Positions 10,272-33,960 are shown, counted from the stretch's first letter. The stretch: 48,060 bases of DNA from Ruminococcus sp. (GCA_014799675.1 JAAVHM010000014.1:3836-51895), one strand, 5' to 3'. Notes: generated from the sequence alone by a model not told the origin. A program made the numbers and translations.

Positions 10272-10664
10272 TCATAAAAGCATGAACTTTTTGCTCACGT
10301 CCGCCTTAAATTCTCCCTCAAAATCGGAATACTCCGCCGCAAGGGTGTAGGTGTCGTCGATTTCCAAATCCACAAAGCCCCGATACGCCTTTGCCGTACC
10401 GAAATTTTCAACAACGCCGCCTTTGGAATTATACAGCACGAAATTGACCGTGCCGCTTTTAACGTTTGTATTTAGAGAAATTCTTACCCTGTCGCCGCTG
10501 CTGCCCTTGAAAGAAACTTCTGAGCTTGCGGTTTTGGCTTCTCCGACAGGGACGCTCATGCTGATATTTCCCAAGGGCTTGTTTTTCATAAGAATGACCG
10601 TTGTCAGGACTGCTCCAAGCAGGACTGCCGATGATATTGATATTACTGCGATTTTCTTTTTCAT
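10272..10664 (-). CDS. small membrane-anchored/exported protein, unknown function
   Basis: 130 aa with an N-terminal hydrophobic anchor. Its start overlaps the stop of the upstream CPBP gene as ATGA. Confidence 0.5.
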   Translation of the reverse strand: MKKKIAVISISSAVLLGAVLTTVILMKNKPLGNISMSVPVGEAKTASSEVSFKGSSGDRVRISLNTNVKSGTVNFVLYNSKGGVVENFGTAKAYRGFVDLEIDDTYTLAAEYSDFEGEFKADVSKKFMLL

Positions 10665-11524
10665 ATTTTTTGCACCTCCAAATGCTTTTTCTCGGGAACA
10701 TATTTTATAAAAATAATTGCGGCTATAACCGTAAAACCTATTCCGCCGACAATTCCGACCGCACTCGGACCAATAAACGGGTTTGGTTTCGTCTGCATAA
10801 AAAGCACCGACGGCGAAAACTTATCCATTGCGTTGAGCGCGGCATGGAAAACAACGGGACACCACACCGACTGTGTTTTTGAAAACAAAAATGCTTCAAT
10901 AATTCCGAGAATAACACAATGTACCGTCATTGCGAAAATTCCCAATATTTGGTGTTCGCTGCCGTAGTTGAAGCCCATTGCAATTATGGGGGCGTGCCAA
11001 AGTCCCCAAATTACACCGTCGATTATTACAGCGGTTCTGTAACTGAATTTTTGGTTAAGTTTCGGTAGCAGGTAACCTCTCCATGCAAATTCTTCTCCGA
11101 GACATTGGAGAAGTCCCATGATAGGATTTATCAGTACCGCCAGCGGTATCATGACCGCAAGCTGTTTGAAATATTCCGTAACTGTTTCGCTGCCTGTTTC
11201 CAAAGCGTATTGGGACAAAAGCGGCTCCCAATTGTTTCTGAAAATCAGAAAATACACGGCTGCTCCCGCATAAGCGGCGACGGGCGTTCCCAAATAAGCC
11301 GCAAGATACCATTTCAAATTACCCTTAAAATGCGGCTTCAAGTACAGATCTGCAAAGCCCTCCTTTGTGACAAGCCTTGTAATTATCACGCTTGCCGCAG
11401 GGGTAAACATCAAAATTGTAAGGAAAATATTATTCCCGTAAACATAGTACAAGCCGCTGAAAATTGCCAACAATATTAACGCTGAAATTCCAAAACAAAT
11501 AAATCTTTTTTTCTCAATATTCAT
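10661..11524 (-). CDS. CPBP family intramembrane glutamic endopeptidase (CAAX protease/Abi-like)
   Basis: EEFAWRGYLLP, GLWHAP and HAALN motifs. I place the start at ATG 11522-11524 (MNIEKKRF), overlapping the upstream stop as ATGA. The 69-aa N-terminal extension in the ORF track overlaps the upstream gene. Confidence 0.75.
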   Translation of the reverse strand: MNIEKKRFICFGISALILLAIFSGLYYVYGNNIFLTILMFTPAASVIITRLVTKEGFADLYLKPHFKGNLKWYLAAYLGTPVAAYAGAAVYFLIFRNNWEPLLSQYALETGSETVTEYFKQLAVMIPLAVLINPIMGLLQCLGEEFAWRGYLLPKLNQKFSYRTAVIIDGVIWGLWHAPIIAMGFNYGSEHQILGIFAMTVHCVILGIIEAFLFSKTQSVWCPVVFHAALNAMDKFSPSVLFMQTKPNPFIGPSAVGIVGGIGFTVIAAIIFIKYVPEKKHLEVQKI

Positions 11525-12381
11525 GCTGCTTCCCTCCCATGTTTTTTCAGCAAAATTACTGCAATCACCGTAAAAATAAGATACGCCCCTATGGAGACAA
11601 CGGAAGCCTCCGCGCCGAACTCCCCTCCCGTGATAAGGACATTTTTTGTTTCCAGCACATAGTTGAATATGCAGCTGTCCATAGGTTCGGTATAAATATT
11701 CAGAATACCGCTTGCCATGCACATATTCCATATGGCGTGCATAAACGCTGACGACCAGATACTGCCGCTTTCGTATGTTACGAGTGAAAAAAGTATTCCC
11801 ACGATACTTCCCGCAACAAGAAGCTGGATAAAGCTGACAAGAGACAGCTTCCCGTTCAAAGCGTGAGCCGCACCGAACAGCGCGGAGGGTACAATTACCG
11901 CCACGACCTTATTCCAGCGCATTTCAAGGGCTTTCATAATGACACCGCGGAAAACGGCTTCCTCAACCGCGCCAACGGCAAGTCCCGCAACAAATACCGA
12001 GGTGGTTATGCTGTCTGCGATTTGCGCGCCGTCCATTTCGGGGTTGTCCCAATGACCTGCTGTCATTAGAAGTCCGAAAATCACGATCGCGGGCATGATA
12101 AACGCCGACACAGCCCAAATCGGCTTGATTTTGCAGCTTGTGATACGGCAGTCCGAAAGGGTCGCGCCGAGAATTTTCCCGCAGATTATTTTCAGAACGA
12201 CAAGCGCAAGCAGCGGGTACAGAATTGCTGCAAGGACGTTCCCTGCGGCTTTTGGAAGTCCGAGGACGATAATTCCGCTTCCTGCAAGCATTGCAAGAAG
12301 TTGGGTAACGACCAATGCCGCTATTGCCGATAATGCTCCCACAACCGCGCGCCATGCGGGGATTTTTTCTGTTTTGTTCAT
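11521..12381 (-). CDS. CPBP family intramembrane glutamic endopeptidase
   Basis: 286 aa, polytopic, with motifs EEAVFRGVI, FGAAHAL and HAIWN. Confidence 0.8.
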   Translation of the reverse strand: MNKTEKIPAWRAVVGALSAIAALVVTQLLAMLAGSGIIVLGLPKAAGNVLAAILYPLLALVVLKIICGKILGATLSDCRITSCKIKPIWAVSAFIMPAIVIFGLLMTAGHWDNPEMDGAQIADSITTSVFVAGLAVGAVEEAVFRGVIMKALEMRWNKVVAVIVPSALFGAAHALNGKLSLVSFIQLLVAGSIVGILFSLVTYESGSIWSSAFMHAIWNMCMASGILNIYTEPMDSCIFNYVLETKNVLITGGEFGAEASVVSIGAYLIFTVIAVILLKKHGREAA

Positions 12382-12516: not shown

Positions 12517-13326
12517 CTACTGCTCGTCGCCATAATTGCCTTTGGAAAAATCCCAAAGCTGCCATGTCCAATTTCCGTAAACATCGCTGTAGGCTACCCT
12601 GCGCAAAAATTCCGCCGCATTGTCGTCAAGTATATGTCTGCCGTCCGCTGACGCAAAAACCGCCGTTTTTCTGCCGTCCCTCAAAGGGTAAAGATAAACA
12701 ATAATGTCGAACTCGGGATCGACCGCAGGGACGGTTTCATCATACGGTCTTACGTAATAATCGCTGTCCCAGTCAATTGCGGCAAAATCTTCCATTAGCA
12801 TTTCATAGCTCATCTGCGAAAAAATATTTCCCACAGTCTTAACGTTTTCCGCCAAATCCCAAACAGAATTATCGCAGGAATAAAGCTTGCGGGTAAATGC
12901 GTTTTCGTCAAAGGTATCGCTTTCCGAAGTTCTGTAGGTCATGGTATAGACCGTGCCGTCCTCAAGAATACAGAAAAAATAACTGGCGGATTCGTCCATA
13001 AAGCCGTCGTGATATACCCAGCCCTCCGCGGTCAGCAGCAGGTTGTCAACAGTCAGTTCCATAGCATTTGCAGGGTCATAGGGCGTTGTTTCGGTAAGCG
13101 TGACAGTTGTTTTCGCAGAGGTAACAATTTTTTTCTGTGTGGTCGTAACGGTTGTTTCCTCATTTTTTTCGGTATTGACCGTACTTGCTTCCGTTGTTTC
13201 AGAAACCGTTGTAACGCTTGTTTCTGTGGTTTCTGTCTCGCCGCTTGTGTCATTTTCTCCGCAGGAGGTCATGGTTACTGCAATAAGAAGCGCTGCCAAA
13301 AGCTTGGATTTTTTCATTTTTATCAC
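12517..13326 (-). CDS. lipoprotein with T/E-rich linker, unknown function
   Basis: Lipobox VTMTSCG followed by an ETETTETSVTTVSETTE low-complexity linker. Confidence 0.6.
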   Translation of the reverse strand: MIKMKKSKLLAALLIAVTMTSCGENDTSGETETTETSVTTVSETTEASTVNTEKNEETTVTTTQKKIVTSAKTTVTLTETTPYDPANAMELTVDNLLLTAEGWVYHDGFMDESASYFFCILEDGTVYTMTYRTSESDTFDENAFTRKLYSCDNSVWDLAENVKTVGNIFSQMSYEMLMEDFAAIDWDSDYYVRPYDETVPAVDPEFDIIVYLYPLRDGRKTAVFASADGRHILDDNAAEFLRRVAYSDVYGNWTWQLWDFSKGNYGDEQ

Positions 13327-13415: not shown

Positions 13416-14516
13416 TCAAATCGTATTAAAAAGTCCCCTGTTAAAATCGGCTATCTTCTTAAAATCCATATCGTCGGTAATGGAAGCCACCCCACCCGCC
13501 TGACTAAAAGTGCCAAGCAAAGGCACATTTTCAAAAGCCGTGCCGATCAGTTCCTTTGAAGCCGCCCACGAAAATTTTTCCGCAAAAATTACCTTGATGT
13601 CCCTGCCGAAATAGCTTTCTATCTTGTAATCAACAGGCTCGGTAAGTCCGCTTGCGTTGTGAAGCTCCGCCGTAAGAGCCTGCGCTTCGGCAAGCTTTTC
13701 CTCCCGCTGTGAAAGGCTTTCTGCGGACAATGCGCCGCTTATCGCCTGCTTGATTTTATCGTCAATATCAAGTTTTCCGAAAGCCGTCCCGAACCATTTG
13801 CTGTAGGGCGCATACGCTTCCTTATACAAAAAGCACAGCCGCATAAGACGTTCGCAAATTCTTGAGCATATTATTTTTGAACCGATATCGTCCCCGCACT
13901 CGCCGCAGCGTTTTACAAAGGCTTGCTCCGAGGCGATTATTTCCCAGTTTGATGCGATAAGGTACAGCTTCACATCTTTCGGGTAAAATTTTATTTTTGA
14001 AATTATTTCGGCGCAGTTCAAACCGTCAGTAAAAAATTTTCCCGACACAAGCGAAAGAAGCCTGTGTTCGGAAAAGGAAAGCCACTCATGTGGCTTGATA
14101 TTATCGAGGTCGGCTGTGCCAATTTCCTCTGTCAAAAATTCCTCAAAGGTCTTAATAAAAACAAGCGAGTTGACCCTTCCCGTACCGATAAGCTTAGGCT
14201 TTTGGACGCCGTTGTCGTTGGGGTTCGGCTCGGTGAAATTCACGCTGTACCCCTCATAAGTATAGGGAAGCCCGCTGCACAAAGCCTGAAAAATTTCGTC
14301 CTTTAGTGAAATATCTTCCTTGCTCAAAAACATATAAAAGCGGGGTCCCCACATATGGTCGGTGGAAATCGGGTCGTCGTACCCCAGCACGTCAGAGCCG
14401 TAGCCTATCAGCCCCGCGGAATATTTCAGCTTGGGAAAATTTTCCTCAATAATTTTTTTGGCGCAGGTGTTGAAAAAGCTTTCGCAAAGCTCCATTCCCT
14501 TTATAAATTTGGTCAT
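13416..14516 (-). CDS. DUF4037-type protein (degenerate nucleotidyltransferase-fold N-domain)
   Basis: 366 aa. GLIGYGSDVLGYDDPISTDHMWGPRFYMFL matches my memory of the DUF4037 family signature. The RBS AAGGAGA overlaps the stop of the TerD-domain gene, leaving a 12-nt gap. Confidence 0.6.
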   Translation of the reverse strand: MTKFIKGMELCESFFNTCAKKIIEENFPKLKYSAGLIGYGSDVLGYDDPISTDHMWGPRFYMFLSKEDISLKDEIFQALCSGLPYTYEGYSVNFTEPNPNDNGVQKPKLIGTGRVNSLVFIKTFEEFLTEEIGTADLDNIKPHEWLSFSEHRLLSLVSGKFFTDGLNCAEIISKIKFYPKDVKLYLIASNWEIIASEQAFVKRCGECGDDIGSKIICSRICERLMRLCFLYKEAYAPYSKWFGTAFGKLDIDDKIKQAISGALSAESLSQREEKLAEAQALTAELHNASGLTEPVDYKIESYFGRDIKVIFAEKFSWAASKELIGTAFENVPLLGTFSQAGGVASITDDMDFKKIADFNRGLFNTI

Positions 14517-14528
14517 TTAAAAATCTCC

Positions 14529-15851
14529 TTAATCCGCAACGATAACCCCATAGCTTTTGCAAATGTCGGACAGCTTCATTGCAACGCCCTTGCCCGAGGG
14601 GACAAGCTCCCAAACGCCGTCCACACGTTCAAAGCCGCAGGCAAGTATCGTCCTGCAATTGATATTTTTTTCAAGCTTCATTCTCATACGGACGCCGTTT
14701 TCGCAGAGGAAGCTTATTTCGCCGTCGATAAGCTTGCTGAACTGCTGCCAATGCTTGTCGCCGTAAATCGAAAACAGCAGGGTCATATGGTTCACGTCCG
14801 CGGGGATACTGCGGAAGTCGATAAACATTGCACGTTCGCCGTTTGCGCTGTCGTTCATGTAGCGGACGCTGCCGCAGGGCGACTGCATATTTCCGAAAAA
14901 TATCATGTCGTTATTTCCCCCGACCTTGCCCCTGTCATTCAGCATGAACAGGTACGCGTCAATGTCAAGCTTCATTCGCATTCCTCTGCAAAGCAGTTCT
15001 ATGCGGTACTCTCTCGGCGCAAGGGGTATCCTCCTGCCGCTGAAAATTTCCGTTTCGTCTGCCTTGGAATAGTTCAGCCTTTCGCTGCGCTTTGGGTTAC
15101 GCTCCTCCTCGGTAAGAACAACACGCTCGCTGTCGGGCGCGGGCATTGCCGACAGGCTTGCTATATCAAGCCCGTCAAGCATTTTCTGATAATTGTATGG
15201 AGCTTCCCTGTCCACCGAATAGAGCATATAATTCTGCGGGGACGGCTCGTCTGCGCCGCCCGCTTCGCCGCTTATGAAAATTTTCCTCGTTATGCCTGTC
15301 ACTGACGAGGTTATAAAAATATTTCCGTAAATAATTGAACCGCTGCGAAATTTCCCGGCGGTAACGGTTATATTGTTGTAGCCTCTTGAAAGTGTATCCT
15401 GGGAAAGCTTTACATCATAAATGCCGCAGCGTATTTCCGCCTCAACGGGAGAATATATCTCCATGGAAAAGGACTCCCTGCGTTCCGCGGGAAGCCTGCC
15501 CAGATCAAGCATTTTGGGGAAGCCCCAGTACTGCTCTTCACCCTGTATGCCAAGAACAGAACCGTTTACCTCAACCTCCGAAAAGACAGCGTTTTTGCCG
15601 CGGCAATAAACCGAGATATACTGCTGCTCGGGAATATTGTCGGAGGTAAGCTCCACCTTTAAATTGTTTACCGTAACAACCTCCGCTTCTATAACAAGCA
15701 CAGGACCCGACGAATTCCACAAAAGCGCGCCGCCGCCGTTTACCGTGCAGCTTTTGCGTATGAAAAATCTTCCCTCGAACTCTCCGCAGGGGAGGTTCAC
15801 AACGCCGCCCTTTGGATCGTCCAGAAGCTTTTGTATATCAATGCCCGACAA
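14529..15851 (-). CDS. TerD-domain fusion protein (unknown about 280-aa N-region plus C-terminal TerD-like domain)
   Basis: The C-terminal about 160 aa read LDIDAYLFMLNDRGKV...DMIFFGN...ERAMFIDFRSIP...MTLLFSIYG, a TerD/TerZ-type beta-sandwich pattern. TTG start at 15849-15851 lies 7 nt after AAGGTGG. Confidence 0.72.
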   Translation of the reverse strand: MSGIDIQKLLDDPKGGVVNLPCGEFEGRFFIRKSCTVNGGGALLWNSSGPVLVIEAEVVTVNNLKVELTSDNIPEQQYISVYCRGKNAVFSEVEVNGSVLGIQGEEQYWGFPKMLDLGRLPAERRESFSMEIYSPVEAEIRCGIYDVKLSQDTLSRGYNNITVTAGKFRSGSIIYGNIFITSSVTGITRKIFISGEAGGADEPSPQNYMLYSVDREAPYNYQKMLDGLDIASLSAMPAPDSERVVLTEEERNPKRSERLNYSKADETEIFSGRRIPLAPREYRIELLCRGMRMKLDIDAYLFMLNDRGKVGGNNDMIFFGNMQSPCGSVRYMNDSANGERAMFIDFRSIPADVNHMTLLFSIYGDKHWQQFSKLIDGEISFLCENGVRMRMKLEKNINCRTILACGFERVDGVWELVPSGKGVAMKLSDICKSYGVIVAD

Positions 15852-15966: not shown

Positions 15967-18003
15967 TTAAAACGCTATTCCCGCCGCTGTCAGCAGGGCT
16001 GCTGCCGCCGCTGTCAGGATTATTCTGAATATCAGCCATGCCTTGTAATCCGTGCCGAATCTTCCCGAAATAATTATGAAATCCGAAAGACATTTTATAC
16101 CGCACCTTTCCGCCGCCGCGGCGCAAACCGACCGCACCGAGGAAGCCGCCGAGGAAGCCGCAAATGCTGTGTCCACCTCGGTAAGGACTTTTATATCGCG
16201 GAGGATAGCCCCCGCAAAGCAGATCTTCACGCCTGTGTTTCTTGCCGCCTTGACGAGCCGCATTTTGTCACGCTCAACGGCGCACGCAACCGCCTTGATG
16301 TCCCCGAACTTTTTCGCAAGGTCAATATCGCTCATATTTTTAAGCTGTTTCGAGGTAAGAATTACTCCGCCACTCTTTTTTATTCCCGCATATTTTGCTG
16401 TAAAAACAGCGTTCTCGCGGCTGCTTCCCGTAACGAGAACTACCTTTATTCCCGATTTTGAAAGCCGTTCCACGCACTCTGCGGACTCCTCGTAATAGCT
16501 GTCCTGCAAGGCGATAAGCCCGATAAGCGTAAAGCTTCCCTCGGGGAAACGTCCGCCCTTTATTCCTTTATTTGTAAACGCTATTGCTTCCACGTCCTTG
16601 CCCGACAGGGAAATCGCGTCCGCAAGCTTCTGCAAAGCTTTCTTGTTGGTGATCTTATGCCGCTTGCCGTCCGCGCCGTGATAGTCGCCGCACCGTTCCA
16701 GAAGCTTTTCCGACTCGCCTCTTATTATTGTGACAAGCTCGCCGCCGAGGGAGACCGTTGCTCCCTGCAAGCCGTTGTCCCCCGCTTCGGACTGCTTTTT
16801 CAGCACGTCCCTGCGCTTCATGCCGTCCTTGACAAATTCAAGCATGGCGTTGTCAAAGGGGTTTCTGCCCCTAACCGTTCCGTCGGGGAGAAGCTGTGCG
16901 CTGAAAATGCTCAGGACTGCGGTTTTAAGGAGCTTTCCGAGACTGCCGCCTATTTCGCTGAAGCTGGAATATTCCTTGCCGTCGCCGTCGATAAAGCCGC
17001 TTACGGAATATTCGCCCTTTGTGAAAATGCCCGTTTTGCCCGTCAGCAGGACTGTTGTCTTTGCCGCATTTTCAAGGGCTTCGGGCTTTGAAACGGAAAC
17101 TCCCGCCTTTGCAAGCCGCTTTACCGCCTTTGCCGCAAAGGCTTCGCAAGCCAGAGCCTTTCCGCCAATGCAGGAAAACGCCAGCACCGCCGCGCCCAAA
17201 GAAAGTCCCTTTAAAAAGCCGCCGAGGACGCTCCCGCTTGTTGCGCCTATCATCAAAAAAATCACTATGACAATTGCCGCAAGCGCGCCGCCCGCGACAC
17301 CGGAAGAGTTTGCCAAATCGGAAAAATTCTGCTCGGAAATGCGTATCGGCTTGTCCTCGAGACGCTTTGCAAGCTGTGTATTGTCGCCTATCGCGGTAAT
17401 TCTTATTATTCCGCCGCCCGAACAGACCGTTGTGCCGCTGTACACGCAGTAGGGATTGTCGGGGTTTAACATTCCGTTGTCGCGGTAGCCCTCGGGGGCT
17501 GTCCCCTTTTGCATTCTGCCGATAACGCCGAACACGGACTGGTCTACCGTAACCGTGCCGTCCTCCATTATTCCGTCGGCGGGGATAACGTCCTCGGCGG
17601 AAATATATACCAGGTCGCCTACCGTCAGTTCCTCGGCGCGGAGGTCAACGGTCTTGTCCATGCCGCGAAAGACCGCATACACACCGTTTTCGGAGGAACG
17701 CGCCGCCCTGTACAGCAGATTGTTGGAACGGTGACGTATCAAGCCGTTCACCAATGCTGACAAAACCGCAGCTGCGGCGGGGATAACAATTACCTCCGCG
17801 GGGCTTTTTGGGACAGCTTCAAGCAAGCCCAGCATGAAAGTTATCGCACCTATCAATGCCGAGATCACAAAAAGCTTTGCCGTAAGGGAGGTAAAGCCCA
17901 TTATCAGGCTTTGTCCCCAAAAACGGTTATATGAACGGACGTTGCGCCCGTATTTTTGTTTTGACGCTTCTGCTTCTCTTTCTGTCAGTCCCGAAAAAGC
18001 CAT
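15967..18003 (-). CDS. P-type ATPase homolog with degenerate catalytic motifs (predicted non-pumping)
   Basis: 678 aa. The N-terminus GLTEREAEASKQKYGRN and the actuator-like GDLVYISAEDVIPADG...VDQS are P-type hallmarks. However, DKTGT is TGKTG (Gly322 at the phospho-Asp position), TGES is FGVIG, PEGL is IGGKAL, TGD is TGS and GDGxND is AGAILRD. Only one TM follows the P-domain. Confidence 0.75.
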   Translation of the reverse strand: MAFSGLTEREAEASKQKYGRNVRSYNRFWGQSLIMGFTSLTAKLFVISALIGAITFMLGLLEAVPKSPAEVIVIPAAAAVLSALVNGLIRHRSNNLLYRAARSSENGVYAVFRGMDKTVDLRAEELTVGDLVYISAEDVIPADGIMEDGTVTVDQSVFGVIGRMQKGTAPEGYRDNGMLNPDNPYCVYSGTTVCSGGGIIRITAIGDNTQLAKRLEDKPIRISEQNFSDLANSSGVAGGALAAIVIVIFLMIGATSGSVLGGFLKGLSLGAAVLAFSCIGGKALACEAFAAKAVKRLAKAGVSVSKPEALENAAKTTVLLTGKTGIFTKGEYSVSGFIDGDGKEYSSFSEIGGSLGKLLKTAVLSIFSAQLLPDGTVRGRNPFDNAMLEFVKDGMKRRDVLKKQSEAGDNGLQGATVSLGGELVTIIRGESEKLLERCGDYHGADGKRHKITNKKALQKLADAISLSGKDVEAIAFTNKGIKGGRFPEGSFTLIGLIALQDSYYEESAECVERLSKSGIKVVLVTGSSRENAVFTAKYAGIKKSGGVILTSKQLKNMSDIDLAKKFGDIKAVACAVERDKMRLVKAARNTGVKICFAGAILRDIKVLTEVDTAFAASSAASSVRSVCAAAAERCGIKCLSDFIIISGRFGTDYKAWLIFRIILTAAAAALLTAAGIAF

Positions 18004-18020
18004 AGCTGTACTCCTTTTTT

Positions 18021-18103
18021 AGAGATTAGAATTTAGAGGATAGAAATTAGAAGCAAGAATCGAACAGTGTATTTTTATCTTGCTTTATGAATCTTTCCTC
18101 TTG
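18021..18103. repeat. WAGARGC heptad hairpin in the 5' leader of the ATPase-like gene
   Basis: Reads TAGAGAT TAGAATT TAGAGGA TAGAAAT TAGAAGC AAGAATC, faced by the pyrimidine arm ATCTTGCTTTATGAATCTTTCCTCTTG. Confidence 0.6.
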
Positions 18104-18108
18104 AAAAT

Positions 18109-18171
18109 AAACTAACGGTTTCCATTAGCATACTTATAGTTTAATAAACATACTAACAGTTTACTAATAAA
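18109..18171. repeat. AYAGTKK-related array at the kinase 3' end
   Basis: Contains AAACTAACGGTTTC and ACTAACAGTTTAC. These are inverted copies of the blocks GAACCGATAGTTT and ACTGTTAGT at 15925-15966. Confidence 0.5.
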
Positions 18172-19633
18172 TTTTTACTTTTATAAGCATTCCGCGCTCG
18201 CCGCGAAAGGCTCTGAACATAGTTCCGTCCGTGATGCGTATTGCCTGACCTGCGGGGACGGGGTTGCCCGACGGCGACAACAGCCCCTCGGCGTGCTGAT
18301 TTACCAGAAACCACTCGCCGCCGTGGCAGCAGACATACGCCTGCAAGCTTTTGTCCGCCTTTTCGTCGGCAAAAATATTGCTCTGCAAGTGCCACTTGAA
18401 CAGCGGCGTGTTATGTACCACGTCAAGCTCGGAATATTTCCTCCACTCCCCCGAATGCCCCCTGACCTCGGAATTCATCTCAAAGCGGACAATGCTTTTT
18501 TCCGCAATTCTCGTGCCGCAGAACGGACAGACAGGGTTGTTCACGTCATGGAGGACAAACCATTTTTTGTCGCACTGCGGGTTCGCGCATTTGTGGAGCA
18601 AGTCCCATGTTTTCACAAGACCGCGCTCCCACTCCATTGCCGAGGGGCGCAGAGGCGGGTTATGAAGACCGTCCACAAACGCCCTTATAAAAAGGTTTTC
18701 CAGTATGGGTCCCAAGTCCTTAATGGTGGTTTTCAGATTTTGTGGACGGTTCGATGTGTCGTTTGGATTTTCTATAAACAGAGCCATTTCGCCAAGTCCG
18801 AGGAAATCGTCCTTTTCGGCGGATTCCGCGGAGAAAATTTTAGGTCCCATAAGGGGGTGGCGGCAGAAAAGATACTCATAAATAAGCACCGCCAACGCGT
18901 GCAGATCGGTTGATGAGCTTGGTATCATTCGTCTCGGGTCGCTTCGGTCAAGCTCCATTGTTGAGAGGACTTCGGGGGCGATATACCCTCTTGTTCCCGC
19001 GACCTCGGGAGGGAAAAGCCCAGGCACTACCAGCGAGTCGATGTCGATAACAACGCAGTTCCCCGACTTCGGGTCTATGAGGACGTTGTTGTTGGAAAGG
19101 TCGGAATGGGCAAGTCCCGCCTGATGAAGCCGCCTTATTGAACGGGACAGCAGCAGGGACATCTGTATCATGGAACGGAAATCCCCAAGCTCGTTCTTGT
19201 TCAGGAAACGCCTGTTGCCCGAGGTGAACCAGTTGCTCTTTTTGTCCTTGCCCTTAAGGTCGAGGAACTGGGAGGCTTCCTTTTCAAAGAAAAAGCTTTT
19301 CGGGTATGCGGGGGAAACTATGCCGAACTCGGGTGAGACCACCAGATCGGTAGGCCAGCAGAACCTTGCCGCAAAATAGCTTGCAAGCTTTTCGTCGTTG
19401 CCGATCGCCCCTCCCTTTGACTCGGGAATGGTGGGGTTGTAACGTCCGATTATCGCCTCCAAGCGGGCGGTCATGTTGCGGTCTATCTTGTTCGGCTCGT
19501 TGAAAAACTGCACCACATAGGACTTGTCGGGGGCAAAATATGTGTATTTCATACCTCCGCGGGGAGGGTTATCCGTCACTACATAGGGTATTTTTCTGCC
19601 GTCCGCAAGCGTTGCTTCAACGGTCTTTTCCAT
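18164..19633 (-). CDS. atypical Ser/Thr protein kinase-like protein with C-terminal Zn-ribbon and beta-rich domain
   Basis: 489 aa. Catalytic loop HSDLSNNNVL, DFG-equivalent IDIDS, activation-segment GYIAPEV, then CANPQC-x14-CPFC and a 115-aa tail. No clear GxGxxG loop. ATG preceded by GGGAGGA. Confidence 0.8.
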   Translation of the reverse strand: MEKTVEATLADGRKIPYVVTDNPPRGGMKYTYFAPDKSYVVQFFNEPNKIDRNMTARLEAIIGRYNPTIPESKGGAIGNDEKLASYFAARFCWPTDLVVSPEFGIVSPAYPKSFFFEKEASQFLDLKGKDKKSNWFTSGNRRFLNKNELGDFRSMIQMSLLLSRSIRRLHQAGLAHSDLSNNNVLIDPKSGNCVVIDIDSLVVPGLFPPEVAGTRGYIAPEVLSTMELDRSDPRRMIPSSSTDLHALAVLIYEYLFCRHPLMGPKIFSAESAEKDDFLGLGEMALFIENPNDTSNRPQNLKTTIKDLGPILENLFIRAFVDGLHNPPLRPSAMEWERGLVKTWDLLHKCANPQCDKKWFVLHDVNNPVCPFCGTRIAEKSIVRFEMNSEVRGHSGEWRKYSELDVVHNTPLFKWHLQSNIFADEKADKSLQAYVCCHGGEWFLVNQHAEGLLSPSGNPVPAGQAIRITDGTMFRAFRGERGMLIKVKIY

Positions 19634-19648
19634 AATATTCCTCCCGAA

Positions 19649-20926
19649 TTACTTCACGTTTACCAGTACCAGAGTTCTGTCGTCAAATGAACCGCGCTCC
19701 ACATAGTTGTCAAGCCAAAGCTTCAGCATTTCGTGGCGTTCCTTTTCGTGTACAATGTCAAATTTTTCAAGAGAAGCCCTTTTCTGAACGTCGGGTCTCT
19801 GCCAAAGTCCTTTAAGGTCGAATCTTCCCTCGGCAATGATATTTTTTGCATATTGAAGGGCGTACTTGACGTCCCCGTCGTTGACCCAAGGGTAAGCCAC
19901 AGGCTCGGGGATCTTCACCTCGTCCATAAGGGAAATGCCGTTGTCGTGTATATCCATAATTCCGTTAAGCTTCAGGTCGAGGACAAGCTTCAGAAGCTGT
20001 GGGTTGTTGGGGTAATAGTCGTCCGCAACGCCGTCCGTCATAAGCATGAGGGACGTCATTTTGCCCCTGCGTATCTTCGTCCTGCTTTTAAGGCTGTCGG
20101 GGGTACGCATCTGCTCGGAGGTGATAAATTCGGTTTCCCCCGCAAAGCTGCCGCTGTCCGCCCCGCCGAGAATTATCAGGGCATTTTCAAACTCCGCGTT
20201 TTCGTCTACGGCGGCTATCATGCCGTCTCCAAGCTGTATGGCGGCTGTAAAATATTCCCTGCCGTTTTCCGTTTCAACAGGTATTACCGCAGCCACAAGC
20301 AGGGTGCTTGAAAAGTCCTTTAATTCGGGCTTTCTGCCTATCGCCTGCTCAAATTCGGCGATGTCCTTACGCTTGTCAAAAGCCGCGTCCACGGCGGCGA
20401 AAGCCTCGGTGCAGCTGTCCCGCAAAAGTCCCGCAAGCTCCGAGCAGACCGCGGAAAATTCCGTATCGTCAAAGGGCTTGCCCAATGCTTCCCTGTAATT
20501 GGGGGTACTCCGTTCAATGGCGGCAAGCCGCGCCTTTGCGTACCTTATAACAGCGTCGCAAGCCGCCCGCGCGCCTATTCTCGAAAAGGGCTTTGAACCT
20601 GCTCCGTCCGCGGCGGCAGCGACAAGGACGCCGTTTTCAATATCGAAAGCAAAATTATCGTCGCAGTTCGTACCGTCGTGCTTGTGCTTCTTGCCCCTGA
20701 CCGCGGCGGCGATAACGTCAAAATTCCCGTCGCTTTTTGCTTCGCAGGAAAATTCGGGGTACGGCTCGGGACTGTCGGGTACCGGGTTATATTTCCACAT
20801 TGCGGCGGTATGGGCGGTAACGTCGCTGTCGGTCAAAGCTTCGGCAGCATTTTCCGAAACATTTTCAACAACAGCCTCTGCATTATTATTGTTATTATTT
20901 TCCATTTGCCTGACCGTTCCTTTCAC
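19649..20926 (-). CDS. PP2C-family protein phosphatase
   Basis: AAAADGAGSKPF, LMLMTDGVADDY and a C-terminal DDRTLVLV match PP2C metal-binding motifs. The N-terminus is poly-Asn rich. The GTG start at 20926 overlaps the radical SAM stop by 4 nt; an alternative ATG lies at 20905. Confidence 0.8.
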   Translation of the reverse strand: MKGTVRQMENNNNNNAEAVVENVSENAAEALTDSDVTAHTAAMWKYNPVPDSPEPYPEFSCEAKSDGNFDVIAAAVRGKKHKHDGTNCDDNFAFDIENGVLVAAAADGAGSKPFSRIGARAACDAVIRYAKARLAAIERSTPNYREALGKPFDDTEFSAVCSELAGLLRDSCTEAFAAVDAAFDKRKDIAEFEQAIGRKPELKDFSSTLLVAAVIPVETENGREYFTAAIQLGDGMIAAVDENAEFENALIILGGADSGSFAGETEFITSEQMRTPDSLKSRTKIRRGKMTSLMLMTDGVADDYYPNNPQLLKLVLDLKLNGIMDIHDNGISLMDEVKIPEPVAYPWVNDGDVKYALQYAKNIIAEGRFDLKGLWQRPDVQKRASLEKFDIVHEKERHEMLKLWLDNYVERGSFDDRTLVLVNVK

Positions 20927-21696
20927 AATGTTTTTTGAGGTTCAAAGGGAGAGTAATTTTCAATAATATCTAAAATATGGCTTTTATATAAATTTCCGCC
21001 GAGAACGTCTCCGTTGGGACAAACGCTTACAGCGCGTATATCCTCGGGGTTTTCCTCGTATGGGTTTTCCTGCTCTGCACCGTCGGGAAAATATTCTCCC
21101 AAATATTTCAAGGCATTTCCGCTTGGGAAAATAATATTTCCGTCGGCACGTTCTATCCCCATTTTGTCAAATTCCGATAAAATTTCCCGCGTTTTTATAT
21201 TGTAGGGATTGTCGTCCTCTTTGCTCACAAGCCATGCGGGATTGGTACGAATCCACACGCCTGCGGCTTTTACCGCTTCCGCAAAAAGCTTTACCGTATC
21301 GAGAGGGATAGTTTCCTGATGAAAAGCGTCAACAGAGAGCAGTACCGCATTTACGCCGCTGTCCGCAAGATTTTTTGCAACGCGCCGAATTTTATCGTTG
21401 TCTTTGCTGAAAAAACCGTTCGTTATAAGCTGTCTTTTGGGAATACCCATATCCCTTGCGGCAGCGTGAATTTTACAGACCGCTTCGGGGTACAGCAAAG
21501 GCTCACCGCCGAATGTCATCATGGAAGTTATTTCAAACCCGCCGCAAAGCTCACGGACTGCGTTTGCCGCAATATCGCCGTCGATATGCTCGCCGCTGCC
21601 CAAATGTTCTCCCTCGGAGCAGTGCCTGCACCGTCCCGTACAGGCGAAGGTTACAACGAATTCCAGCCTGTTCAGGTTTTTCAGATATTTGTTCAA
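20923..21696 (-). CDS. radical SAM enzyme, small, no SPASM/auxiliary cluster domain
   Basis: 257 aa. CTGRCRHC (CxxxCxxC) at residues 19-26 and a FGGEPLL SAM-binding motif. TTG start follows GGGGGAAAGG, 12 nt after the vWA stop. Confidence 0.85.
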   Translation of the reverse strand: MNKYLKNLNRLEFVVTFACTGRCRHCSEGEHLGSGEHIDGDIAANAVRELCGGFEITSMMTFGGEPLLYPEAVCKIHAAARDMGIPKRQLITNGFFSKDNDKIRRVAKNLADSGVNAVLLSVDAFHQETIPLDTVKLFAEAVKAAGVWIRTNPAWLVSKEDDNPYNIKTREILSEFDKMGIERADGNIIFPSGNALKYLGEYFPDGAEQENPYEENPEDIRAVSVCPNGDVLGGNLYKSHILDIIENYSPFEPQKTL

Positions 21697-21708: not shown

Positions 21709-22350
21709 TTACGGTACTATCACGAAGCCTTGGGGAGGAGGCGGAAGCTCGATATTTGCCCCAGGCTTTGCGTCAAGGCTCTTTGAGGACATTTTAACGG
21801 AGCTTGAAACCCATGCAAAAAACTGCGCCAAGTCCCCTGCCGATAGGGTGTTCATAAGGAGAACGCACTCGGTTATTTCCTTGAGGACTTTCGTGTCCGC
21901 ATACGCTCCCGCCGCGCAGGCGATAATGTTTGCGGGGTGGGTGCTTTTCAGCTCTGCGGCGGCTTCGCGCCACTCGTCGGTAGGCGCGCCGTCCGTAAGA
22001 ATAAATACCAAAGGCTTCCAGTCGCCCTTTTGGGTCTCGGTGGACTTCCTGACCTCGGAGCGTATACACTCGGTGAGAAGTCTCAGCGCCGCGCCGAGAG
22101 CAGTTGCTCCCCCTGCGCTAAGCTGCGGTTCTTTAAAAAGCATAAGCTCGGTGAGGGGGCTGACCTGCCTTGCGCTGGAATTAAATGTAATTACCGAAAG
22201 ATAAGCTGTTTCAAGAGCCTGGGGGTCTCCCCTAAGCTCGGAAGTAAGCGCGCGGACGCCGTGCTTTACGGCTTCAATAGGGTCTCCCGCCATTGAACCG
22301 GAAACGTCCAGAAGAAGATAAACGGGAAGTCGTCTTGAAAATTCGGACAT
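21709..22350 (-). CDS. TerY-like von Willebrand factor A domain protein
   Basis: 213 aa. MIDAS motif DVSGSM at residues 15-20, ITFNS, ILTDGAPTD, and a C-terminal PPPPQGF tail; the size is typical of TerY/YegL. Confidence 0.85.
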   Translation of the reverse strand: MSEFSRRLPVYLLLDVSGSMAGDPIEAVKHGVRALTSELRGDPQALETAYLSVITFNSSARQVSPLTELMLFKEPQLSAGGATALGAALRLLTECIRSEVRKSTETQKGDWKPLVFILTDGAPTDEWREAAAELKSTHPANIIACAAGAYADTKVLKEITECVLLMNTLSAGDLAQFFAWVSSSVKMSSKSLDAKPGANIELPPPPQGFVIVP

Positions 22351-22410: not shown

Positions 22411-22439
22411 ATTATACAACTTTTCGGTAATAATGTCAA
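22411..22439 (-). promoter_or_regulatory. promoter of the vWA-rSAM-PP2C-kinase operon
   Basis: Minus strand has TTGACA (22434-22439), a 17-nt spacer, then TATAAT (22411-22416), about 60 nt upstream of the vWA ATG. Confidence 0.7.
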
Positions 22440-28834: not shown

Positions 28835-29872
28835 CTATTTTGTAACGATGACCGTATCGGGAAGTCTGTCCTGTAAGGATTGAAGCTCGTCCTCGGAGAT
28901 ATCCACGCCTACAAGATAAACCTTTTTAAGATCGACAAGATTTTTAAGGGGGTTAAAGTTTGTTACATGGTTGCCGTCAAGCCTAATCCAGCCGAGAGAG
29001 GTCAGCGAGGTAAGCGGCTCAATATCCGATATGTTGTTGTTGTCAAGGTAGACCTCTGTCAGGTCAGCCATATTTGAAAGCGGCATAATGTCGCTTATGC
29101 TGTTGTTGTGCAGGTGCAGCCTGTCCATTTTCTTAAGACCGCTTAACGCTGAAATGTCGGAAATATTATTGTCGTTGAGCCTTAACAGTTCAAGATTTCT
29201 AAGCTCCGTAAGGGGCGTTATATCGGAAACGCTGTTCTCGGAAAGGTCAAGGACTTCAAGACCGTAAAGCCCGTCAAGAGCAGAAATATCGCTGATATTG
29301 TTTGCTCTTAAATAGAGACCTTTAAGGGAGATAAGTCCCGCAAGAGGCGAAAGGTCGCTGACCTTATTATTGAAAAGCGACAGGTTTTCAAGGTCGGTAA
29401 GTCCCTTGACAAAGGAAATATCTGTAATATTGTTCTGATAAACGTACAGCTCGGTGAGGTTTATCATATATTTCAAGTCCTTGACGTCCTCGTCGGTAAG
29501 ATCCATATTGTTAAGAGTAAGGGAGGTAAGCGCTGTGCTGTACTCCTTGCCCTTTATGGTAATAAACTTCGGCAGGTCAGCCATAGCCTCGGCTTTTGCG
29601 GCGGCAGCGTCGCTTACCGCGGGGTTGTCCTTGCCCATGATAAAGTCATATTTATCTTTGTACTCGATATACGGCACGGTCTCGGCTTTAAGAGACTGCA
29701 CCTGACTTTCAAGCTCGGCTATCCTTGATTCGTAGCCCGCCTCGTCAAACGTTACAGTTGTTGTTATTTCTGTCTCGTCCTTTGAAATAAGTCCCTTGAT
29801 TTTTTCACAGCCTGTTGCTGAAAGAACAAGTACGGCGGCAATTGCCGCAGGAAAAATTTTTCTGATCTTCAT
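28835..29872 (-). CDS. leucine-rich-repeat lipoprotein (internalin-like LRR)
   Basis: Lipobox LSATGC, a coiled-coil stretch, then about 9 tandem 22-aa LRRs (L-x-L-x-N-N-I-S-D-I-x-P-L). Confidence 0.8.
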   Translation of the reverse strand: MKIRKIFPAAIAAVLVLSATGCEKIKGLISKDETEITTTVTFDEAGYESRIAELESQVQSLKAETVPYIEYKDKYDFIMGKDNPAVSDAAAAKAEAMADLPKFITIKGKEYSTALTSLTLNNMDLTDEDVKDLKYMINLTELYVYQNNITDISFVKGLTDLENLSLFNNKVSDLSPLAGLISLKGLYLRANNISDISALDGLYGLEVLDLSENSVSDITPLTELRNLELLRLNDNNISDISALSGLKKMDRLHLHNNSISDIMPLSNMADLTEVYLDNNNISDIEPLTSLTSLGWIRLDGNHVTNFNPLKNLVDLKKVYLVGVDISEDELQSLQDRLPDTVIVTK

Positions 29873-30090
29873 AACAATATTCTCCTTTTCATCGGGGGAA
29901 GCAGCACTCCCATATTACAGCCTTACTTCCGTCACGCAATAATACATATTTTATTATACAGCATTTTCCCACGTAATGTCAAGGAAAAATAATTAATAAT
30001 TAATAGTTAATAATGAATAATTATTTAATGTTTTTTAATAAATAGATTAACAGGTTGAAACGGATAAATTTATATTTATATTTATATTTG

Positions 30091-30182
30091 CAACGTCTCT
30101 GTAGGGCGGGGGCTCTGCTCCCGCCTTTTAAACGAATTTGATATACAAAAGGCGGGAGCAAGCCCCCGCCCTACAGTTGTTG
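30091..30182. repeat. GTAGGGCGG-type long hairpin element, copy 2
   Basis: CTGTAGGGCGGGGGCTCTGCTCCCGCCTTTT pairs almost perfectly (about 30 bp) with AAAAGGCGGGAGCAAGCCCCCGCCCTACAG. It shares the CAACGTYTCTGTAGGG and TTTTAAACG blocks with copy 1, and is preceded by (TTTATAT)x3 at 30068-30090. Confidence 0.75.
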
Positions 30183-30261
30183 GATAAATATGAGAAGTTA
30201 AAATTTATCTGATTGCCGCTGTGCAACTTTTATTGCCCTGTACAAAAATTCCCCCAAAGCC

Positions 30262-30290
30262 TTGATATGCCGCAAATACGCCGCTATACT
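30262..30290 (+). promoter_or_regulatory. candidate promoter of the tail-fibre-like gene
   Basis: TTGATA (30262-30267), a 17-nt spacer, then TATACT (30285-30290). An AGGAAAGGA RBS precedes the ATG at 30329. Confidence 0.5.
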
Positions 30291-30328
30291 GAAAATATGG
30301 GAACAAATCTACAGGAAAGGAAAATCTT

Positions 30329-32473: not shown

Positions 32474-32500
32474 TAAAATTTAAAAAACCGCATATCACAA

Positions 32501-32545
32501 ACTGCCAATGCTTTGATAAAAGCATTGGCAGTTTTATTTTTGTTT
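32501..32545 (+). terminator. intrinsic terminator after the tail-fibre-like gene
   Basis: ACTGCCAATGCTT-TGATAA-AAGCATTGGCAGT followed by TTTTATTTTTGTTT. Confidence 0.75.
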
Positions 32546-32589
32546 CGGAACAGAAAAGGCGAGAAAGTAAACATATAGGCAAAAATATA

Positions 32590-33960
32590 TTAAATTAACC
32601 CTTTTTTAACAAGCGCATTAATTGTCTTTTTGTCAATATCATATTGACTTTCAATAACGCCGTCATCATTTCTTTCAAAACGTTTCGCACTAACAATCAT
32701 ATTGTTTTCATAAATATATTTCGTAGAAATGTACATCTGTGGATTCATACCACCGTCAAATAATTCATCAAATTTATCATCATTAGGAAACAACCTATAT
32801 GTATCATCACCTATATCACAGTCAAAGCTGTATGATTCTGCACCAACGCTTTCCAATAACTTTCCGTCAATATAATGGTAATCTTCCATAACGTAAAGTT
32901 TATGTTCATCATACTTAATAAATGACATCAGCTTTCCATTTTTATCATATGAATTTTCTTCGGTAAACATATAAACAAATACTCCGTTTTTTTCCTGACG
33001 ATATTCCGAAAAAACCATTTTATTGTTTTCTCTAAAATATACTCTGCATGAAAAAGGCGGTTTTTGACTGCCATCCAAATAATGTTCGGCATAAATTGGA
33101 TAGTTTTCGTCATCAAGATAATACTTTATAAAATCATCTTTACACTCATCTGCACTTTTCTTCTGAATACCAGTATCAAATTTTCCGGTTTCAAATATGG
33201 GATTTAACCTATAAAAATGTATATCATTGCAGCCTTTTTTATAAAAAACTTCATGACATTTCTCTTTTGCTTCATCAGATATACCTACATACTTGGCATA
33301 TTTTTTTGACATTTCAAAACAATAACCCTTAATTTCCAAAAGCCTGCTGTCTGAGACAAATTTTTCGGCAGAATTGCACTCTTCAAAAAAATCGCACTTA
33401 TTTTCATTTGCTTCGCCATAACTGTAGCCAACAATAAATTTACTTATAATTTTTGAAGCTTCTTTGTCAAAATCCAGAAAACTATGATAGATGTAATTAT
33501 TATTTTTATATTCGTTTATCGTTCTTTCAACAAGTTCTAACAGTATCTCTGTCTGTTCCTCAAGAAAATATGGCTTAAAAATGTTACAGCACGTTCTTAT
33601 ATATTTTTTGGCAAAAGCAGTACTGTTTTCATCTTCCTCATTGCTGCTTTCTACAAATTCATTGTCGGAAAGGAATTCCACAAGCTGACGAAATACAGCA
33701 TTTTCAAAGCTGTCAGCGTAATATTCAGGTTCATCATCATCGTGATAGTATAAAAATATTTTTTCACTGTCATTATCCGCAACCCAAACATCGCCTCCAC
33801 CCGTTACTGCAAAAGGAATTGCATCTTCTGGAATAAAATCAAAAAAAATATTTGATTTTTTCTCACTTATCCATTCCATATCCCTAATCCAAATGTAATT
33901 ATTGCTTGAAGTATCAAAATATCCTGCATTTACCATATCAGTATAACATTTATTTTTCAT
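32590..33960 (-). CDS. AT-rich hypothetical protein with N-terminal SUKH/SMI1-KNR4-like (immunity-type) domain
   Basis: 456 aa. IPEDAIPFAVTGGGDVWVADNDSEKIFLYYHDDDEPEYYADSFENAVFRQLVEFL fits the SUKH C-terminal half pattern (IPFA-x-GGGD ... SFxxF). The gene is visibly far more AT-rich than its flanks (not computed). Confidence 0.5.
   Translation of the reverse strand: MKNKCYTDMVNAGYFDTSSNNYIWIRDMEWISEKKSNIFFDFIPEDAIPFAVTGGGDVWVADNDSEKIFLYYHDDDEPEYYADSFENAVFRQLVEFLSDNEFVESSNEEDENSTAFAKKYIRTCCNIFKPYFLEEQTEILLELVERTINEYKNNNYIYHSFLDFDKEASKIISKFIVGYSYGEANENKCDFFEECNSAEKFVSDSRLLEIKGYCFEMSKKYAKYVGISDEAKEKCHEVFYKKGCNDIHFYRLNPIFETGKFDTGIQKKSADECKDDFIKYYLDDENYPIYAEHYLDGSQKPPFSCRVYFRENNKMVFSEYRQEKNGVFVYMFTEENSYDKNGKLMSFIKYDEHKLYVMEDYHYIDGKLLESVGAESYSFDCDIGDDTYRLFPNDDKFDELFDGGMNPQMYISTKYIYENNMIVSAKRFERNDDGVIESQYDIDKKTINALVKKGLI

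Follow-up and report, generated by a model that had tools for sequence, protein, structure and literature searches.

A pump-like gene in a TerY-P/TerD cassette

The window analyzed here, a stretch of 48,060 nucleotides from Ruminococcus sp. (GCA_014799675.1, JAAVHM010000014.1:3836-51895), carries at 15967..18003 on the minus strand a gene for a 678-residue homologue of the P-type ATPases that appears to be a dead, C-terminally truncated pump and that we call the pseudo-pump. The open reading frame (ORF) is uninterrupted, with an ATG start, zero internal stops and an AAGGAG Shine-Dalgarno sequence 7 nt 5' of the ATG. We consider it highly probable that the product is a non-catalytic, selected and cassette-integral protein derived from a Ca2+ pump of the plasma-membrane Ca2+-ATPase (PMCA) type.

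The gene is the fourth of a five-gene cassette, all on the minus strand, in the order TerY-like vWA protein, PP2C, Ser/Thr kinase with a zinc ribbon, pump-like protein and long TerD. The vWA protein (213 residues; 21709..22350) matches PF00092 (50.6 bits) and PF13519 and carries the DxSxS metal ion-dependent adhesion site (MIDAS) motif as LLLDVSGSM. The PP2C-family phosphatase (425 residues; 19649..20926) matches PF13672 with 123.7 bits (E = 1e-35), and the kinase (489 residues; 18164..19633) matches PF00069 with 43.4 bits and has a C-terminal zinc ribbon, CANPQC...CPFCG (CxxxxC...CxxC), followed by a beta-rich tail. The last gene (14529..15851) codes for a TerD protein of 440 residues (PF02342, 73.5 bits). 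These Pfam matches agree with the neighbors named in the original prediction, made from the sequence of the window. As judged from hydropathy, the pump-like protein is the sole member of the five that bears transmembrane (TM) segments. We predict that a promoter-like site that precedes the vWA gene by about 60 nt, TTGACA-17-TATAAT (22411..22439, minus strand; a 12/12 match to the sigma-70 consensus only), is likely the operon promoter. The spacer between the kinase and pump-like genes (18004-18163) is AT-rich and 160 nt long, as compared with 20-50 nt in most other genomes, and contains a weak hairpin plus a T-run at 18129-18111; attenuation or processing may take place at this internal position.

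The three upstream genes satisfy the composition and order of the TerY-P triad, consisting of a vWA protein, a PP2C phosphatase and a kinase with a zinc ribbon (as defined by Anantharaman et al., 2012, via PMC11090510 and PMC4978471). The match includes the kinase zinc ribbon and the vWA MIDAS motif, and the kinase architecture fits the description of the TerY-P kinases (PMC11090510; PMC7159879). The triads described so far, however, are associated with DNA-processing, McrBC/CoCoNuT or secretion partners (PMC11090510; PMC4978471), whereas the partner here is a pump-like membrane protein. No PADLOC model matched the vWA, PP2C, pseudo-pump or TerD proteins, and the kinase only weakly matched unrelated kinase models; on this basis, we rejected the idea that the cassette is a known defense system. 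Moreover, both in the window and in the relatives examined, the cassette is flanked by housekeeping genes and no defense island was seen. TerY-P-related modules reportedly act as anti-phage systems, a finding ascribed to Gao et al. 2020.

The genomic context was surveyed in six relatives with 41-54% identity to the pseudo-pump and, by ORF and BLAST analysis, in all the loci fetched. The recurrence of the gene beside TerD and TerY-like genes, raised in the original prediction, was confirmed: wherever the contig was long enough the gene order was the same, with differing flanking genes. The order was identical in about 25 genomes of the lineage to which the window protein belongs (lineage 1) and in four contexts of a second lineage (lineage 2, see below). 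Across both lineages, the vWA protein is the most conserved member of the cassette (87-95% identity). Because insertions are strain-specific and the flanks are variable, the conserved unit extends from vWA to TerD.

Two additional genes were considered as members of the cassette and rejected, as both are missing from close relatives and from distant cassettes. The first codes for a radical SAM protein of 257 residues (20923..21696, minus strand; PF04055, 53 bits), located between the vWA and PP2C genes and overlapping the start of the latter by 4 nt. It has weak matches to a YydG-type epimerase, prokaryotic viperin and MoaA. The gene is found only in the window and in a 91% relative (L009) and is missing from L010 and from all other cassettes; possibly, it is a recent accessory to the Ter module. 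The second, for a 366-residue DUF4037 protein (13416-14516, minus strand), begins 12 nt past the TerD stop codon, a position from which co-transcription could follow; it is missing at the corresponding position in L009 and L010 and is thus an insertion specific to the strain.

Motif losses, fold and conservation in the pseudo-pump family

The pseudo-pump scores above the cut-offs of PF00122 (47 bits; cut-off 28.1) and PF00702 (28.5; cut-off 26.4) and barely passes the generic P-type model TIGR01494 (63.1 vs. 62.3). It fails the PMCA-type model TIGR01517 (66.6 vs. 507.05), and its best equivalog score, with TIGR01524, is 91.9 against a cut-off of 610.75; with all of the subtype equivalogs, the score is five- to ten-fold under the cut-off. 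Among solved structures the best match is the Listeria Ca2+-ATPase LMCA1 (E = 2e-24). The AlphaFold2 (AF2) model of the protein (pLDDT, the predicted local distance difference test, 85.8; predicted TM-score, pTM, 0.81) has actuator (A), nucleotide-binding (N) and phosphorylation (P) domains on a helical membrane domain. In Foldseek, the model matched P2 pumps in the E1-nucleotide state (SPCA1a, Na,K-ATPase and SERCA) with query TM-scores (TMq) of 0.75-0.79.

The motif register was established by aligning the protein to LMCA1 with HMMER, by three MAFFT alignments that included true pumps, and by direct indexing. The LMCA1 and MAFFT alignments were concordant, ruling out a register error in the earlier motif assignment. 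The P-type landmarks reported earlier, GLTEREAE (residues 5-12), KYGRN (residues 17-21), GDLVYISAEDVIPADG (residues 129-144) and RGESEKLLERC (see below), were placed likewise by the alignments, and the alignments and indexing together confirmed the replacements that had been claimed for DKTGT, TGES, PEGL and TGD. Following the M1-M2 hairpin (residues 38-103, 17695..17892, minus strand as for all the segments below; hydropathy, with AF2 helices at 40-60 and 70-103), the actuator-domain core (residues 104-224, 17332..17694; PF00122 match and alignments) keeps GDxxPADG. The TGES loop, in turn, is replaced by a conserved DQSVFGVIG, with FGVIG at residues 158-162. In M3-M4 (residues 225-299, 17107..17331; hydropathy, AF2 and alignments), PEGL is replaced by IGGKAL (residues 279-284), in the context C-I-G-G-K-A-L, with no Pro and no Glu. 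The first half of the P-domain (residues 300-335, 16999..17106) has the degenerate loop LLTGKTGIFT, in which DKTGT has become TGKTG (residues 321-325) and G322 (codon 17038-17040) occupies the phospho-Asp position.

The N domain (residues 336-500, 16504..16998) shows the motifs GFIDGxGKEY, KITNK and GKD(470)V and has lost the ATP contacts. RGESEKLLERC (residues 428-438) lies at the KGAPE site, with R428 at the position of the Lys, and D470 is found at the equivalent of SERCA R560, a pump-invariant Arg that binds an ATP phosphate; the adenine-stacking Phe and the adenine-pocket Lys had no counterpart in the alignment of the pseudo-pump with pumps. In the second half of the P-domain (residues 501-634, 16102..16503), TGD reads TGS (residues 525-527) and the equivalent of the motif III Lys, K580, is kept. 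GDGxNDxP is replaced by AGAILRDIKV (residues 597-606), as stated in the original prediction, but the loss is not complete since the second Asp of the motif survives as D603. The single TM segment noted after the P-domain was also found: both hydropathy and the AF2 model gave M1-M4 and a C-terminal helix at residues 635-677, for a total of five TM helices (M1-M5). The protein ends with this M5-equivalent segment (residues 635-678, 15970..16101), and M6-M10 are missing. From these replacements, the window protein is predicted to be incapable of a Post-Albers cycle, because it is without the nucleophile, the Mg2+ ligands, the dephosphorylation Glu, the M4 ion site and M6-M10.

A word-indexed search returned 43 proteins of 659-699 residues with 40-94% identity to the pseudo-pump; below these, the scores dropped from 441 to 103 bits. 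When 1.84 billion representatives were searched exhaustively with a HMMER profile, the family boundary was again sharp, with about seven full-length clusters at 50% identity (708-1082 bits) and, as the next match, a pump of 900 residues (326 bits). Lineage 1 comprises about 45 sequence clusters and the two lineages together about 85, with conserved length. In a scan of species-representative genomes, lineage 1 was found in about 23 species of Oscillospiraceae-type Clostridia from animal and human guts. Cassette contigs with Bacteroidota labels (L002/L030, GCA_023663025.1, Prevotella sp.; and P0005, Muribaculaceae) look like mis-binned Clostridia, a suspicion raised for L002 because it additionally encodes a small acid-soluble spore protein. 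Database names for members of the family are "HAD family hydrolase," "cation-transporting P-type ATPase" and "hypothetical protein"; thus, current annotation mislabels the family as pumps.

The ratio of non-synonymous to synonymous substitution rates (dN/dS) for the pseudo-pump is 0.06-0.19 (Nei-Gojobori; 12 pairs, dS 0.4-1.5), indicating purifying selection. This constraint is weaker than that on vWA (0.01-0.10) and kinase (0.01-0.08), and similar to that on PP2C and TerD. The view that the gene is not a decayed pseudogene is thus borne out by the intact 2-kb frame, the dN/dS values, the approximately 85 clusters and the confidently predicted fold; with the Shine-Dalgarno sequence and the synteny also considered, there is next to no chance that it is a decaying pseudogene or an annotation artefact.

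We then counted motif residues in the 45 lineage-1 clusters; 26 genome-derived members were also checked. The original prediction that every catalytic signature is lost holds for the window protein but not for the family, in which the phospho-Asp position is variable: Asp in 17 clusters, Gly in 14 and Glu in 14. Gly is found in the subclade of the window protein (at least 69% identity), and some members read DKTGVLT. The absence of the Asp as a family hallmark was therefore rejected, since lineage 1 has D, G or E at this position and lineage 2 has D. The interchange of D, E and G among relatives implies that this position is no longer an essential nucleophile. What is lost family-wide is the TGES Glu (0/45), the PEGL Glu (0/45, with G or C at this M4 position in 43/45), the TGD Asp (1/45) and the first Asp of GDGxND (0/45), and these four motifs are likewise missing from all 26 genome-derived members. 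Conversely, all 45 clusters have K or R at the motif III Lys equivalent, and 31/45 keep the second Asp of motif IV. All lineage-1 members terminate after M5. The SERCA R560 equivalent is Arg in 55/55 pumps and Asp in 42/45 lineage-1 clusters, and the KGAPE Lys position is R, S, K or C. The suggestion that the protein might be a nucleotide-binding regulator is disfavored by this Arg to Asp change, by the variable KGAPE Lys and by the adenine-pocket Phe and Lys without counterpart.

Domain conservation, expressed as mean pairwise identity, was compared between active pumps and the short family. For the region of the phosphorylation loop (P1), identity is 0.81 in active pumps and 0.33 in the short family, and for M5 it is 0.66 and 0.33; for the N domain, however, it is 0.41 and 0.51. 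The conservation ranking is thus inverted, with P1 and M5 at the top and N at the bottom in pumps, and with N and the N-terminal A segment (0.56) at the top and P1 and M5 at the bottom in the family. The family also has new invariant motifs in the N domain (GFIDGxGKEY, KITNK and GKDV). The shift in conservation, together with the lost ATP contacts, indicates that what is constrained is a new function of the N and A domains instead of catalysis or ion binding.

Full-profile matches to a second group of proteins (the P0161 group, lineage 2) were present among the weaker matches of the exhaustive search, at lengths of 665-690 residues; they define about 40 clusters of 654-695 residues, with source labels that are again Oscillospiraceae. 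In 4/4 contexts (L089, L091, L092 and L093; gene at 8001-~10050 in each), lineage 2 occupies the same slot of the cassette. The two lineages are alike in this slot, in their similar length and in the loss of TGD and GDGxND, yet lineage 2 keeps both M5 and M6, whereas the window protein stops at M5. Lineage 2 retains the Asp-Lys of DKTGT in 39/40 clusters, with an invariant Phe at the position of the last Thr. In 15/40 clusters it also keeps the M4 Glu, but its TGES loop has been deleted altogether. Identity to the window protein is 21-26%, no nearer than that of active pumps. For the partners, the identity across lineages is 87-93% (vWA), 70-81% (kinase), 48-56% (PP2C) and 29-35% (TerD). Judging from its motifs, lineage 2 is the less degenerate of the two.

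Relation to PMCA-type pumps and to TerD

The family scored about 212 bits against PMCA-type profiles vs. 85-89 bits against MgtA-like or LMCA1-like profiles. An affinity to MgtA or LMCA1, suggested by the first NCBIfam and PDB matches, was superseded, as the PMCA-type profiles score about 2.4 times higher. In a neighbor-joining tree, the family was monophyletic in 200/200 bootstraps and formed a long branch inside the PMCA-type clade. The commonest single sister was the TerD-flanked pump of L033 alone (54/200 bootstraps), and the whole clade was the sister in 55/200; scores from hidden Markov models (HMMs) gave no separation of TerD-linked from unlinked PMCA-type pumps.

The nearest full-length pumps from a representative-genome scan have 886-906 residues, and 32 of them have immediately adjacent TerD genes. 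Most of the 32 belong to TerD-TerD-TerD-pump operons, found in Lachnospiraceae, Oscillospiraceae, Clostridium and one metagenome-assembled genome (MAG) of the Paenibacillaceae (L033-L066, L069, L074 and L083; e.g., L034:5847-10661). The TerD-adjacent pumps pass TIGR01517 (540-585 bits vs. 507) and keep DKTGT, PEGL, KGAPE, TGD and GDGVND, with NGE[AS] in the place of TGES. The pseudo-pump resembles the PMCA-type pumps in overall sequence (24-29% identity), in the N-terminal GLxxxEAExxRxKYGxN, in the A-domain GDxxPADG, in the A/N/P/M1-M5 fold and in its genomic linkage to TerD, and a loop of the F-x-D-K-T-G-x-I-T type is still recognizable in some members of the family. It differs in that these pumps have M1-M10 and keep the catalytic motifs, whereas the pseudo-pump is without them and stops at M5, and in that their TerD partners retain the Ca-binding loop, which the TerD of the cassette does not.

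In Selenomonas sp. ND2010 (L058:7920-17470), a single cluster contains an active PMCA-type pump with a short Ca-loop TerD and a 410-residue long TerD, as well as a vWA-PP2C-kinase triad with a 397-residue long TerD, an arrangement that is possibly intermediate between pump operon and triad cassette. At another locus (L074), the order is pump-TerD-TerD-kinase-vWA. In at least four genomes, a TerDx3-pump operon accompanies the pseudo-pump cassette, and in JAFQIY010000016 some 50 kb of a single contig separates the two. The active enzyme is thus still present alongside its paralogue, the pseudo-pump. No description of the TerDx3-Ca-pump operon was found in the searchable literature, whose coverage did not extend to the 2012 Ter comparative-genomics survey. 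One paper on jumbo phages names both TerD and a Ca-ATPase, but it concerns active pumps and draws no connection between them.

The AF2 model of the 440-residue cassette TerD has a tandem Ig-like beta-sandwich region (about residues 1-212), a disordered linker (residues 236-264) and a TerD domain (residues 266-440). Foldseek matches to 3IBZ and 2KXT with target TM-scores (TMt) of 0.74-0.75 show that the TerD beta-sandwich fold is present. The loop of the Ca-binding Klebsiella TerD (2KXT), GDNRTGEGDGDDE, however, corresponds in the cassette TerD to NDSANGE, a deletion of five residues. With the pattern GDNxTGxGxGDDE taken as an intact Ca2+-binding loop, the acidic loop was found in 87/87 short TerDs beside active pumps but in none of the 35 long TerDs (29 from lineage 1, four from lineage 2 and two from Selenomonas). 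Thus, the active module consists of three Ca-binding TerDs and a Ca2+ pump, and the derived module of a loop-less TerD, a dead pump and the phosphorylation triad. From these sequences, the TerD of the cassette has degenerated in parallel with the pseudo-pump. Neither this degeneration nor the likely source of the gene, a TerD-linked PMCA-type Ca2+ pump, had been recognized in the original prediction.

Possible roles of the pseudo-pump, and the remainder of the window

The original prediction of a repurposed membrane scaffold or sensor stands insofar as the protein is non-catalytic, selected and embedded among the triad and TerD, and it is still the best reading. We hold, with moderate confidence, a composite view in which the pseudo-pump is a membrane docking and conformational platform for TerD and for the kinase/PP2C/vWA switch; the binding, the tethering and the phosphorylation control are the parts that we infer. 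The A-N-P headpiece, kept on a reduced M1-M5 stalk, would serve with it as a membrane-anchored docking and conformational platform. The conserved N/A headpiece, and chiefly the N domain, would bind the long TerD without a Ca loop, continuing the ancestral partnership of pump and TerD. The pseudo-pump would either bring the soluble kinase/PP2C/vWA switch to the membrane or be controlled by it, and a role as a putative target of the kinase and phosphatase is plausible. Ser/Thr phosphorylation in trans would supplant aspartyl autophosphorylation as the control event, and the pseudo-pump would transport nothing, the phosphoenzyme chemistry, the M4 ion site and M6-M10 being lost.

Within the cassette, no members evolve faster than the pump-like protein and TerD. 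Once the kinase/vWA signal is removed, the pairwise distances of these two are more strongly correlated than those of any other pair (r = 0.86 overall, 0.65-0.72 for lineage 1 by itself), which hints at co-evolution, although such a mirror-tree correlation is confounded by the high rate common to both proteins. This confounding is one of several points that weigh against the platform view. Every member of the family comes from uncultured MAGs or metagenomes, and that the ancestor was a TerD-linked pump, and not just some pump of the PMCA type, is no more than likely. The Asp and the motif III Lys are retained by roughly one-third of lineage 1 and by almost the whole of lineage 2, and some residual chemistry in the Asp-retaining members is conceivable. 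A pure tether would not obviously need a headpiece of 630 residues, nor would it explain the conserved motifs of the N domain, which could instead be the site for an unknown ligand.

More tentatively, stand-alone pseudo-pumps could form a new functional class, in which a kinase/PP2C pair and a vWA metal sensor drive, in trans, the conformational state of a Ca2+-ATPase's E1/E2 machinery that is shorn of its chemistry and of half the membrane domain. It is likewise only a tentative suggestion that the pseudo-pump and the co-degenerated TerD make up a membrane signaling or effector device that evolved from a Ca2+-homeostasis module.

The coexistence of the two types of locus in at least four genomes, about 50 kb apart in JAFQIY010000016, also bears on a different and rather doubtful possibility, that the pseudo-pump is a decoy or regulator that binds Ca-binding TerDs or heterodimerizes with the TerD-linked PMCA-type pump, with the kinase/PP2C pair governing the strength of either interaction and thereby tuning Ca2+ export. 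Pseudoenzymes that regulate active paralogues are common, the pseudo-pump is paralogous to that class of pump, and the top fold matches include solved structures of MgtA dimers, a precedent for contacts between pumps. In Oscillospiraceae, however, the gene is always found with the triad and a long TerD and never in an active pump operon, and the TM region that heterodimerization would need is among the least conserved parts of the protein.

It is unlikely that the protein is instead a membrane effector, a kinase-activated half-pump whose M1-M5, deprived of support from M6-M10 and of the occlusion machinery, would open or oligomerize into an ion leak, causing depolarization or Ca2+ entry, and we regard it as just as unlikely that the output is stress, dormancy or abortive infection for a TerY-P-type system. 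TerY-P-like modules are anti-phage and have been proposed to be phosphorylation switches that require an effector (PMC11090510); the pseudo-pump is the only membrane protein of the cassette and, besides TerD, its only component that is not of a signaling type. These two are also its fastest-evolving members, as the effector and sensor ends of conflict systems often are, and P-type pumps can be converted to channels, as in the palytoxin-bound Na,K-ATPase (9vj0) found among the fold matches. The absence of PADLOC matches for vWA, PP2C, pseudo-pump and TerD and the housekeeping flanks, which are not defense islands, nevertheless argue against this role. Moreover, the TM helices are poorly conserved and, with the exception of R660, have no conserved polar residues that could line a pore, and the overall dN/dS shows no sign of diversifying selection.

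Quite unlikely as well is a ligand sensor, in which the remodeled N domain would bind a small molecule other than ATP, for example a nucleoside-like Ter metabolite, and signal to the kinase/PP2C pair. No globular domain of the family is better conserved than the N domain, in which invariant FIDGxG, KITN and GKD stand in place of the ATP contacts, and TerD domains have been proposed to recognize specialized nucleotide derivatives (PMC7159879); also, the radical SAM gene inserted in the cassettes of the window and L009 has weak viperin/MoaA-like similarity. Conserved surface motifs are, however, equally explicable as a protein-protein interface, and the radical SAM gene is missing from all other cassettes, so that it is not a general requirement for sensing.

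Lastly, a divergent but active P-type ATPase or HAD phosphatase is very improbable even for the members that retain the Asp (17/45 clusters in lineage 1 and 39/40 in lineage 2; some members read DKTGVLT), the motif III Lys equivalent (K/R in 45/45) and the second motif IV Asp (31/45) notwithstanding, given the Gly at the nucleophile position of the window protein, the loss of the first motif IV Asp (0/45), the TGD Asp (1/45) and the TGES Glu (0/45), the Arg to Asp change at the ATP-binding position (42/45), the missing M4 Pro-Glu and M6-M10, and a phosphorylation loop that is the least conserved segment and whose D/E/G swapping is incompatible with an essential nucleophile.

Although the TerY-P triad, TerD and PMCA-type pumps are each already known, no description of a stand-alone, truncated and inactive P-type ATPase family was found in the searchable literature, nor of a P-type ATPase-like component of TerY-P/TerD cassettes, for which an earlier mention in the 2012 Ter survey is possible. 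Searches on inactive, degenerate or truncated P-type ATPases returned only the alveolate cyclase fusions and CtpH/CtpI. In the former, the P4-ATPase-like/guanylate cyclase fusions of Plasmodium (GCalpha/GCbeta), Toxoplasma (ATPaseP-GC) and Paramecium, a pump module has also been co-opted for signaling, and no functional activity of the ATPase-like module had been demonstrated as of a 2017 review (PMC5746546). They differ from the pseudo-pump, however, in being eukaryotic, of the P4 flippase lineage and composed of a full 10-TM module fused to a cyclase; they are not stand-alone truncated proteins and have no link to Ter, vWA, PP2C or kinase genes. The N-terminal degenerate region of Mycobacterium tuberculosis CtpH/CtpI is bacterial, P2-type-related and of unassigned function, as described on the basis of AlphaFold (PMC13460109), but it is a degenerate module fused to a canonical pump in one very large polypeptide, without a Ter/kinase operon.

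Few membrane enzymes are understood as well as the P-type ATPases, and the pseudo-pump, as a conserved pseudoenzyme derivative, offers a natural experiment on what the A/N/P headpiece does without phosphoenzyme chemistry. The two lineages can be viewed as stages of degeneration, one with M1-M6 and the Asp kept and the other with M1-M5 and the Asp drifting, in a stepwise passage from pump to pseudoenzyme. The TerY-P triad, whose outputs are poorly defined, gains a concrete membrane component, and the genomic link between Ter and Ca2+ pumps, seen both in the TerDx3-PMCA operons and in the pairing of a dead pump with a loop-less TerD, makes the question of Ter sensing more testable. The distribution is narrow, being that of uncultured Oscillospiraceae-type gut bacteria, and the mechanism is the one we infer above; if the more tentative reading of a new functional class is true, this would be the first P-type ATPase turned into a phosphorylation-gated switch and would link Ter/TerY-P to Ca2+.

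Several other genes of the window lie outside the cassette. Two tandem genes for Rce1-like CAAX proteases (10661-12381, minus strand) have maximal ORFs that overlap by 211 nt, so that the downstream gene probably starts later than its maximal ORF does. Upstream of them, a small ORF (12517-13326) looks lipoprotein-like, having a Cys and an N-terminus that resembles a signal peptide. A three-gene group at 28835-33960, amid housekeeping operons, codes for a leucine-rich-repeat protein (28835-29872, minus strand), a 714-residue protein with phage tail-repeat and head-fiber-like repeats (30329-32473, plus strand) and a SUKH-1/SMI1-KNR4 immunity-type protein (32590-33960, minus strand). This group may be a polymorphic toxin/immunity remnant or a surface-protein island, and in L009 a homologous region is found directly upstream of the cassette. 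Finally, a protein with a Prok-RING_1 domain (84.9 bits) and a zinc ribbon is encoded at 37285-38301 (plus strand); a nucleotidyltransferase gene comes directly after it, the two overlapping at the start of the latter.

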